DNA of 20,000 nt from an uncultured virus (IMG/VR IMGVR_UViG_3300028888_000136). Lineage: Duplodnaviria > Heunggongvirae > Uroviricota > Caudoviricetes. Below the pieces are notes generated by a model. It ran no database searches, was not told the DNA's origin, and saw only the letters and a list, made by a program, of their open reading frames with translations. This document shows, piece after piece, positions 5,591 through 11,970 of the stretch; position 1 is the first letter of the stretch, and every line of letters begins with the position of its first letter. Location of the stretch: IMG/VR virus record IMGVR_UViG_3300028888_000136; one strand, written 5' to 3'. The position numbers and the translations under genes were made by a program.

Positions 5591-5989
5591 ATGTCCAAAA
5601 CAAAACACAAGAAAGATTGTGGAAAATTCAAATCGCATTTTGAATTGGAAGTATCTGAAAAAATGCCGACTGATAGCTATGAATGCGAGGAAATAGAGTA
5701 TGAAGTGCCAGTCATTGCAAGAGTGTATCATCCAGATTTCGTGACAGAGCCAGATGGAAAGAAAATATACTGGGAATGCAAGGGTAAACCAAGAAATCTT
5801 GAGGAAATGAAGAAGTATATCTACGTAAGAAATTCAAATCCAAATATAGATTTGAGGTTTATACTGATGGACAAAAAGACGCTGATGCCAAGAAGCAAGA
5901 AGACCACAGTTGCGGAATGGCTGAAAAAGAACGGATTCGTTTACTATTTATGGCCAGATATTCCAAAAAAACTTTTACAAAATTCTTGA
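5591..5989 (+). CDS. T7 endonuclease I-like Holliday junction resolvase
   Basis: FKSHFELEV...YE...IEY...YHPDF...WECKG...NPNIDLRFI...TTVAEWLKKNGF follows the phage endonuclease I pattern. Confidence 0.85.
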   Translation: MSKTKHKKDCGKFKSHFELEVSEKMPTDSYECEEIEYEVPVIARVYHPDFVTEPDGKKIYWECKGKPRNLEEMKKYIYVRNSNPNIDLRFILMDKKTLMPRSKKTTVAEWLKKNGFVYYLWPDIPKKLLQNS

Positions 5990-6014
5990 CATTTTCAGAA
6001 AAAAAAGATACAAT
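5986..6014 (+). promoter_or_regulatory. putative promoter
   Basis: TTGACA (5986-5991), 17-bp spacer, TACAAT (6009-6014), overlapping the resolvase stop codon. Confidence 0.5.
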
Positions 6015-6043
6015 TAAAATTGACTAAATTCTTCTAATACTGG

Positions 6044-6086
6044 CTGGGAGCGCATACAAGGTGTGTAGCTTCCAGTTTTTTTTTTT
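6044..6086 (+). terminator. intrinsic terminator 1
   Basis: CTGGGAGC-GCATAC-AAG-GTGTGT-A-GCTTCCAG followed by T11. Confidence 0.8.
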
Positions 6087-6090
6087 AACG

Positions 6091-6123
6091 AAGGGCTACC
6101 CATTTAGAGTAGCCCTTTTTTTT
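6091..6123. terminator. intrinsic terminator 2, possibly bidirectional
   Basis: AAGGGCTAC(6091-6099)/GTAGCCCTT(6109-6117); T-tract on the + strand, longer stem but weak U-tract on the - strand. Confidence 0.75.
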
Positions 6124-6165
6124 GGTCCAAGCCCAACACTGAAACTCGCACAAAGTCAAACGCGG

Positions 6166-6173
6166 CAAAGATA
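6166..6173 (-). promoter_or_regulatory. Bacteroidota-type -7 promoter element pointing into the non-coding gap
   Basis: Minus strand TATCTTTG (TAnnTTTG) followed by CCGC; no clear -33 TTTG. Confidence 0.55.
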
Positions 6174-6183
6174 GTATTTTTAT

Positions 6184-7152
6184 TTACGAAAGAAGCTTTT
6201 CATTGGCCTCGAACAGTTTTTCAACGGGAATATCACCAAGATAATTGTCGGTAATACCAAGAGAATGGCCTAAATTGCGTTCGATTATCGCATAATTGAC
6301 ACCCTCTCCGTTAAGAATAGTGCAATAACTGTGTCTGGCGAAACAGAAAGAACAGTCACTTCGTAAACCAAGTTTGCTGGCCACTTTTTTAAGCACTTTG
6401 CTGGCGTATGTGTTTATGTACATAACCCTCAAATCCACAGCGTCATCATCGTTGATGTCTGTGTCGTTCAGAAAGCTGCCGAAAACAAGACCACCGTTGT
6501 TTACCTCATCGCCAATCTCGTCAATGACAATTGATAGTTTTTCCGTTACAGGGACGCGCACATAGGCTCCGCTCGAATTCCTAACCTTGTGCCTGTGGAA
6601 ACCAAGTGTTTTCCCTCCACTGTTGCGCCATTCGTCATCATACCTCATACGTAGCAAATCGGCAGCGTTGCAACCGTTGCAGAGATAGCTGGCGAAGAAT
6701 ATCCCAAGCCACCTTTTCTCTCCATTTGACTTTTCAAGACCAATCCAGTAGTCCCACAGTTTCTGTATGTCATCTTTTGAAAAATAACTACCCTGACGCT
6801 TTCTTGGCTTTTCAAGCTTCACTTTGTCAAGCTCATATGATTTTGAGCGGGTGAGCTTTGCATCGCCATAGAACACACCTATGTACTGTCCATAATTCAC
6901 TATGGACTGCAAAAGGGCGAAATAGGTTTTGATTGTTGATGCTGATTTCCTCTCGCTTTTCATCAGGTTATGCAGCCTTGTGGCAAAAGCTGGATTGACA
7001 TCCTTCATCTGGACTATCCCGTAATGGCTTTCGATGTAGTGGATGATTGTCCTGTAATTGCGGTAGGAAGAACGGCCTTCCGCCTTCATTACCAGCATTT
7101 TCTCTGTCAGCAGCTCGTTGAGTGAGCGATTCTGTTTTTTTGTCCTTTTCAT
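6184..7152 (-). CDS. tyrosine recombinase / integrase, Bacteroidales type
   Basis: SAM-like core-binding region (SASTIKTYFALLQSIVNYG), then SYLCNGCNAADLL, FHRHKVR...VRVPV, FARHSYCTIL, LGHS, TDNYL (catalytic Tyr); ATG at 7152 or GTG at 7158. Confidence 0.9.
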   Translation of the reverse strand: MKRTKKQNRSLNELLTEKMLVMKAEGRSSYRNYRTIIHYIESHYGIVQMKDVNPAFATRLHNLMKSERKSASTIKTYFALLQSIVNYGQYIGVFYGDAKLTRSKSYELDKVKLEKPRKRQGSYFSKDDIQKLWDYWIGLEKSNGEKRWLGIFFASYLCNGCNAADLLRMRYDDEWRNSGGKTLGFHRHKVRNSSGAYVRVPVTEKLSIVIDEIGDEVNNGGLVFGSFLNDTDINDDDAVDLRVMYINTYASKVLKKVASKLGLRSDCSFCFARHSYCTILNGEGVNYAIIERNLGHSLGITDNYLGDIPVEKLFEANEKLLS

Positions 7153-7306
7153 TTGCACATTTTTTGGTTAAGTTTATACTCGTAACTATTTGATTTTCAA
7201 ATATGCCCGCCATTTTGATGCTGGCAAGACGAAATAATCCATATATTTCCCTCGCACAATCCATCTTATTGAATCAGAGGTAATTAAACCCTGATTAGTA
7301 ATTTAC

Positions 7307-11896: not shown

Positions 11897-11970
11897 GGGC
11901 GAGTAGCTCAGTTGGCAGAGCATCTGGTTTGCAACCAGAGGGTCGTGGGTTCAAATCCCACCTGCGTCCA
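11897..11970 (+). tRNA. tRNA-Ala(TGC), extra G in the acceptor stem, CCA not encoded
   Basis: D arm GCTC/GAGC; anticodon arm TCTGG-TTTGCAA-CCAGA (TGC at 11930-11932); T arm GTGGG-TTCAAAT-CCCAC; acceptor GGGCGAG/CT(G)CGTCC with G3:U70 and A73. Confidence 0.9.

Follow-up and report, generated by a model that had tools for sequence, protein, structure and literature searches.

A candidate prophage RNA in Bacteroidales with antisense complementarity to a host rod RNA

What is made from a promoter that stands behind a phage integrase gene and is followed by no gene of its own? The question is raised by positions 6091-6173 of a 20,000-nt stretch of DNA (hereafter the window), the right end of a 64.9-kb record of an uncultured virus (IMGVR_UViG_3300028888_000136), where a minus-strand -7 element, an A run and a GC-rich hairpin lie just past the stop codon of a tyrosine integrase. 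An earlier note on this DNA had suggested that the unit specifies a captured antitoxin or decoy RNA without its toxin. Our analysis leads us to favour, on balance, another reading, in which the unit likely yields a ~75-nt prophage antisense RNA that would block a zipper-type attenuator of the host, here called the rod RNA, and would switch off a small leucine-rich repeat (LRR) gene. The identity of the promoter, the conservation of the unit in related phages, its complementarity to one host locus, the covariation of the rod RNA and the position of the attachment site elsewhere are directly supported.

The RNA unit and its copies in related phages

The host-type promoter (6162-6180, minus strand) consists of an A-tract and the -7 box TATCTTTG (6173-6166), 10 nt beyond the integrase stop. 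The -7 8-mer alone occurs at chance level (27 matches in the window, 22.9 expected). The 19-nt promoter text was present in 38 of 55 genomes from the presumed host genus when 6085-6180 was used as a BLAST query, the matches always falling within query positions 1-30, and a same-strand open reading frame (ORF) followed 8-162 nt downstream at 17 of the 20 host loci fetched. Since this text recurs ahead of genes in the host genus, the promoter is taken to be a working one of host type; the RNA body gave no match in the same search. The predicted non-coding RNA of ~75 nt (6086-6163, minus strand), with ends placed from the promoter and the hairpin, comprises an antisense segment (6125-6162), including the core CAGTGTTGGGCTTGGAC (6125-6141), an A8 run (6123-6116) and the GC-rich hairpin (6091-6117), after which no sense-strand gene follows. 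The -7 box, the quoted text, the A8 run and the hairpin are as the earlier note had described them, and its layout of promoter, short RNA and leaky terminator with no cognate gene was borne out; a U8 run on the plus strand (6116-6123) had gone unnoticed. Because of this run, the hairpin is better suited to terminating transcription of the opposite strand; on the RNA strand, where the U tail is weak, it is leaky. The hairpin also drives the fold score of the RNA (z -2.5 to -3.1), the 5' 44 nt having no structure beyond that of shuffled sequences (z +0.9). A 24-codon UUG frame within the unit is not kept in relatives, and an Rfam scan of the unit at E up to 5 returned no family, the sole overlap being a terminator-level suhB match on the plus strand (E 0.15). 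With its own promoter and terminator and no ORF, the unit has the make-up of a phage antisense RNA acting in trans, the terminator of the window copy being leaky.

Two phage units of ~32 kb, paralogous to each other, are present in the record: A (the window) and B. The integrase of unit B is 70% identical to that of the window and is followed by the same layout of promoter, GTGT..GCTTGGA and hairpin. Among the 24 integrase loci whose downstream DNA was inspected, the unit was present at three, L046, L051 and L052 (74, 49 and 56% integrase identity, respectively), and absent from a 46%-identical locus (two records) and from 19 more distant loci. Every relative that carries the unit has retained a -7-type box. 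GCTTGGA is invariant in all five copies, with GTGT 1-5 nt ahead of it, a variable spacing that excludes a conserved peptide; the 5' parts differ to the point of being unalignable, and the hairpins fall into four unrelated types. The hairpins of the relatives have their U-run on the RNA strand, unlike that of the window copy. Further relatives were seen in contigs of three sequencing runs (X3, X4 and X6). The X4 relative showed no difference from the window over 6116-6186 and 13 differences over 6187-6290 (Fisher p 0.0009). In the X6 contig the same hairpin recurs, its U-run falling on the RNA strand; the motif stands farther ahead of it, and ~25 nt of near-exact host antisense text precede the hairpin. 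The close relative in X3 has the same promoter, diverges at 6165 and carries another cargo behind it. As the cargo thus differs behind one promoter among relatives, the site behaves as a promoter-driven cargo slot.

BLAST searches with the unit against phages and plasmids returned short chance matches or none, and a terminase-based scan for relatives revealed no further copy. Pattern scans of viral contigs gave 9, 33, 38 and 1 loci, and among the matches listed only the copies of this phage family were real. The motif pattern scans demanded a promoter or an A-run beside the motif and were therefore blind to the host rod, which carries the text on the other strand. A second unit of promoter, RNA and terminator is seen at L051 (about 1550-1640) and L052 (about 950-1030), with an AU-rich body resembling the antisense of a translation start region.

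The host rod RNA and its pairing with the phage RNAs

A pattern built from the five phage copies and scanned against five genomes gave one match in G411 and three in G438, the two host-candidate genomes among the 55. The G411 match and one of the G438 matches fall on the opposite strand of the same intergenic element; the other two G438 matches lie in ORFs. The element corresponds to a promoter-driven RNA of ~233 nt that folds into a rod (z -5.0). The G411 copy lies at about 1455-1690 of locus L273 (G411:C5), and other copies are among L277-L322. An Rfam search of the rod at E up to 10 gave chance matches and no family, and 63 matches to the rod were found in 27 of the 55 host-genus genomes. 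Compensatory changes were present at 21 of the 56 predicted pairs in 11 copies. When copies were ranked by closeness with the G411 copy as the query, all of the 13 closest directly preceded a small LRR gene and 12 of them stood behind a dipeptidase gene, which gives an orthologous target locus of dipeptidase, rod RNA and small LRR_5 gene; the LRR_5 domain was found in 10 of 10 downstream genes scanned. The LRR protein has no evident signal peptide, as judged by eye. Other rod copies precede genes for secreted or helix-turn-helix proteins, and most pair more weakly with the phage RNA; two copies before housekeeping genes pair equally well (-38 and -39 kcal/mol with the window RNA). Folds of seven copies share a 5' stem-loop, a long stem, a 3' hairpin and complementary ends, the closing helix having a probability of 0.43-0.99. 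The rod also contains the invariant texts GGTGGGGCT and GCTCCACTTTCT, which are mutually complementary and never paired in the models. Intergenic repeats resembling repetitive extragenic palindromes (REP-like; L289-L292, from G407, G411 and G452) share ~15 nt of text with the rod 3' arm and match the phage core. Abi_2 genes stand 4-5 kb behind two other rod copies; they have -7 boxes of their own and were hence not counted as rod-controlled.

The antisense segment of the window copy is identical to the reverse complement of the rod 3' arm at 27 of 37 aligned positions, and the core matches the host arm at 16 of 17. At the internal loop of the rod, where the two arms differ, the phage text agrees with the 3' arm read as its reverse complement (GGGC) and departs from the 5' arm itself (GAAC), and the L051 and X6 texts are a near letter-for-letter reverse complement of the 3' arm. 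It follows that the cargo was captured in antisense. Thus, the proposal of a captured RNA held in so far as the text came from the host, and failed as regards antitoxin mimicry. All five phage RNAs were predicted to pair with host nt ~173-220 of 233, at -39.9, -50.4, -54.2, -48.3 and -43.0 kcal/mol, energies that were reached by 0 of 100 shuffles for each. A genome-wide target scan covered, of the about 1.9 Mb of G411, 1.805 Mb at sites with an 8-nt seed. B, L051 and L052 each had their best site at the rod. For L046 the G411 rod offers no such seed, but the energy of L046 at the rod surpasses that of its best seeded site (-43.8) by 10 kcal/mol. The 5' extension of the pairing was specific in L046, L051 and L052 (equalled by 0, 0 and 1 of 500 shuffles, respectively). 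Differences from the host arm preserved G-U pairing 12 times, in comparison to 4 mirror changes (p 0.04, the changes not being independent). Complementarity to the target is accordingly specific in the four relatives and marginal in the window copy. A search for an antisense target within three phage genomes, as for P4 CI or c4, yielded best sites no better than those of 6 shuffles each.

Proposed mechanism and alternative explanations

In the mechanism that we propose, the promoter would drive a ~38-nt reverse-complement copy of the rod 3' arm and the terminator hairpin, giving a prophage RNA of ~75 nt. Cofolding suggests that this RNA would pair across the unpaired CCC loop of the rod, open the base of the rod and remove the helix that closes its 5' and 3' ends. 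With the window RNA, the modelled probability of the closing helix fell from 0.77-0.88 to 0.04 or less in all four host copies and the 3' hairpin rose in three of them, at net binding energies of -0.6 to -11.3 kcal/mol. The fully zipped rod may be the read-through state, by analogy with cATT of plasmid pLS20, a zipper-type attenuator in which full zipping forms the antiterminator (PMC13401043, partial text). If the analogy holds, a blocked zip would favour termination before the LRR gene. The rod resembles cATT in its weak 5' stem-loop, long imperfect stem, 3' hairpin with a U-rich tail and complementary ends, and differs in that cATT is a plasmid conjugation leader of Gram-positive bacteria (PMC13401043) and that termination at the rod is only predicted. 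The cATT paper raises the idea of a counter-transcript blocking the antiterminator, as in pCF10; the available part of its text names no phage-encoded trigger and does not contain the word stem Bacteroid-. Within this model, it is somewhat more likely than not that the LRR gene would be switched off; read-through could also be the outcome, as the rod terminator is a prediction and the inner rod stays closed in the models. Presumably the phage would gain from such silencing, as the lost host protein would be one that hinders it or a competitor. More tentatively, a temperate gut phage family may have copied a host attenuator RNA in reverse complement and may silence an anti-phage or receptor-related host gene in trans. 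On that reading, which we hold as a possibility well short of even odds, the RNA would be a counter-defence that jams an RNA switch of the host by antisense pairing, copy-specific within a multicopy leader family.

The CI RNA of phage P4 is likewise a ~75-nt antisense RNA of a temperate phage, acting in trans on a leader target borne by the phage. The c4 RNA of P1 and P7 shares the size, the temperate-phage origin and the action in trans on a leader (PMC12197685, partial text), and differs from the unit in that the c4 target lies in the phage, whereas here the partner is chromosomal. Phage RNAs that act on host RNAs are already known, as exemplified by AgvB (described below), and the listings from the searchable full-text literature, which excludes supplements and most subscription papers, showed no phage antisense RNA directed against a host attenuator and nothing on the RNA of this unit. 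The known phage RNA counter-measures (pseudo-ToxI, RNA anti-CRISPRs and AgvB) mimic a host RNA in sense, and antisense against an attenuator would, if true, be a different route. The analysis also gives a first handle on an uncatalogued multicopy rod RNA of Bacteroidales, in that it names the target arm, the gene downstream and a putative trigger, so that the question of whether the rod is a switch becomes directly testable. If the proposal is right, it marks a small LRR protein with no evident signal peptide as something on which these phages act.

Several observations weigh against the proposed mechanism. The pairing of the window copy is the weakest of the five: in the genome-wide scan of G411 the rod ranked third and within the range of 6 shuffles, behind a REP-like repeat (first, with a 14-nt perfect match) and a coding site. 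For its 22-nt core the rod ranked first, yet 1 of 12 shuffles did better. The 5' part added nothing over shuffles in the window (288 of 500) or in B (39 of 500). The net binding of the window RNA was -7.4 kcal/mol, with 2 of 40 shuffles as good, and only -0.6 kcal/mol with the G438 copy, and in one of the four cofolded host copies the 3' hairpin fell. The core match is partly by construction, because the target was found with a pattern drawn from the phage RNAs. On the host side, the 3' hairpin of the rod is weak and differs from copy to copy, none of the models formed the invariant GUGGGGC:GCUCCAC pairing, and PADLOC matched none of seven downstream proteins, the LRR protein included, so that a defence role for the latter is a guess. 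The integrase was found in none of the 401 and none of the 55 genomes searched, and no phage-host pair comes from one cell. In the single RNA run, seen as contigs, 6034-6157 is uncovered, which is evidence neither way on transcription. As the window copy pairs the most weakly, the claim rests on the phage family; the copy itself may be decaying, or tuned to another host strain.

Decay could also be taken as the whole explanation: a captured host fragment that once acted as antisense would now be losing its function, with selection on the promoter slot and on a hairpin that stops plus-strand transcription. We regard this as improbable, albeit the alternative that survives best. It would account for the weak pairing of the window copy with its 5' part no better than shuffled, for the U-run that faces the plus strand, for the close relative that swapped the cargo behind the same promoter, and for the 46%-identical integrase locus that has no unit. 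It is at odds with the invariance of GCTTGGA across integrases of 49-74% identity and with the absence of differences over 71 nt in the X4 relative as against 13 in the next 104 nt, a contrast that recent exchange of the module could also explain.

Slightly less plausible is a rod that works as a stand-alone regulatory or sensor RNA, with the phage RNA as an anti-RNA sponge that inactivates it or brings about its decay, with effects beyond the LRR gene. The precedent is AgvB of prophage Sp5 of enterohaemorrhagic Escherichia coli, an anti-small RNA that mimics the mRNA targets of the Hfq-dependent small RNA GcvB (PMC12197685). As with AgvB, a short prophage RNA would act in trans on a host non-coding RNA; unlike AgvB, the present one is a 30-40-nt reverse-complement copy of an arm of a structured host RNA, in Bacteroidales. 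Some rod copies are followed by housekeeping genes (GcvP and AspS), one of them with its own -7 box, as a stand-alone RNA would allow. Where the phage RNAs match best, however, the rod copy stands directly before an LRR gene and no separate -7 box was found, and the layout of the rod fits a zipper attenuator (PMC13401043).

We consider it unlikely that the window RNA targets the REP-like host repeats, or acts as a sink for a protein with affinity for the shared CCAAGCCC-ACACTG text. The top genome-wide site of the full window RNA is such a repeat, and when its 17-mer was searched with up to 2 mismatches in five genomes, the nine sites comprised five rods and four REP-like repeats (a control gave 4 matches). 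The match to the repeats is confined to the ~15-nt core, whereas the longer complementarity of the four relatives and of the X6 contig fits the rod alone.

The orphan type III or AbiF antitoxin mimic of the earlier note is now very improbable. The layout of promoter, RNA and leaky terminator would suit it, and Abi_2 genes occurred in 3 of 5 host-genus genomes searched. Pseudo-ToxI of phage phiTE copies ToxI in sense and in repeated form (PMC3475682, partial text), and in AbiF antitoxins an abiF stem precedes the toxin (PMC12373285 and PMC12737573, partial texts). Like pseudo-ToxI and the abiF/AbiFr RNAs, the unit is a phage non-coding RNA derived from a host element; unlike these toxin-binding sense mimics, which are repeated or stemmed, the window RNA is single, antisense and unstructured in its 5' part. 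No type III antitoxin repeats were detected, the unit being single by sequence and by self-match. The Rfam abiF model (RF03085), a scan that the earlier note had proposed, scored on the Bacteroidales Abi_2 control leader L164 (E 0.022) and on neither the window nor L046, L051, L052 and L082; at the level of 61 genomes it gave no match and its control was silent, hence that scan is uninformative. ToxN (PF13958) was found in 0 of 5 genomes, with its positive control also silent. Homologues beside Abi genes, which the note would have expected, did not appear: the motif was in 0 of 8 Abi_2 leaders from the 61 Bacteroidales genomes (by eye) and in 0 of 4 from host-genus genomes, whose Abi_2 leaders differ from the unit, three of the four having abiF-like text. 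The search hint in the note, GGGCTTGGACC plus a hairpin before Abi genes, found no counterpart in the pattern scans, which gave 35 loci in GTDB genomes (about the estimated chance number, none seen before an Abi-like gene), a match in 1 of 401 Bacteroidales genomes in comparison to 9 control matches, and 5 matches in the 55 genus genomes, none of them the unit. The origin of the unit is explained instead by the rod before the LRR gene, of which its sequence is the antisense. The three abiF-like host-genus leaders (L438, L440 and L441) contain CCAAGCC, which would allow 8 nt of pairing with the phage core, a match that is probably fortuitous. Mimicry of opsX/UpxY recruitment was rejected, as the YGCGNAGCR consensus (PMC11685472, partial text) is absent from the unit and GCTTGG-R occurred in 1 of 30 UpxY leaders.

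The least credible candidate, an RNA anti-CRISPR (Racr) made of a solitary type I-C repeat unit, is set aside: L051 resembled 4 of 4 host-genus I-C repeats at p 0.01 or less and L052 at p 0.01-0.06 against shuffles, whereas the window copy and L046 did not rise above them (p 0.18-0.83; 0.18-0.45 for the window with the four I-C repeats), the comparison was made post hoc, the stem of the repeat is missing, no Cas2 match was found in the incomplete genomes G411 and G438, and the unit, while sharing with Racrs a solitary host-derived RNA behind a phage promoter (PMC10651486, partial text), differs in that the window copy is not a CRISPR repeat.

Attachment site and gene setting

The attP core lies at 7198-7248 (plus strand), where 51 of 51 nt agree with the 3' end of the host rpmE gene (bL31) in G411. 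The same positions were matched by contigs in three runs, with host DNA continuing at both ends, and units A and B share an identical block upstream of the integrase. The RNA unit was therefore rejected as the integrase attachment site, and its separation from that site, on which the reading in the earlier note depended, stands. A dif-like attachment site considered before was replaced by the rpmE result, and a likeness to an rpsL leader was confined to one genome (0 of 9 others). A perfect attB 24-mer occurred in 2 of the 55 host-genus genomes, G411 and G438, which are for this reason the host candidates; both carry the rod target, and no prophage was found in either. The attB in rpmE lies upstream of lon, and integration would part the integrase from its -7 box at 7345-7338.

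The window encodes an endolysin, a methyltransferase, an endonuclease, the minus-strand tyrosine integrase, a terminase, a portal and a capsid protein. The RNA unit sits between the converging endonuclease and integrase genes, its upstream neighbour being the integrase (6184-7158, minus strand; Pfam Phage_int_SAM_5 and Phage_integrase, PHROG 1). A second RNA-like unit faces it on the plus strand (5986-6086), with a TTGACA-17-TACAAT promoter, a hairpin at 6042-6075 and a U11 run; this twin matched no host sequence in the 5 genomes searched. A TACAAGG-type loop reappears in the loose ends of relatives, and a comparable unit is present in phage unit B. The first 246 nt of the record are repeated at 33095, and the tandem units A and B are probably two genomes joined in one record. 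Related phages at L054 (1419-3427) and L253 (89-2094) have two tandem integrase genes before the small terminase gene and no RNA unit. A tRNA gene (11898-11969, plus strand; Rfam E 4.8e-10), classified as tRNA-Ala by ARAGORN, lies between the protease and capsid genes of the window.
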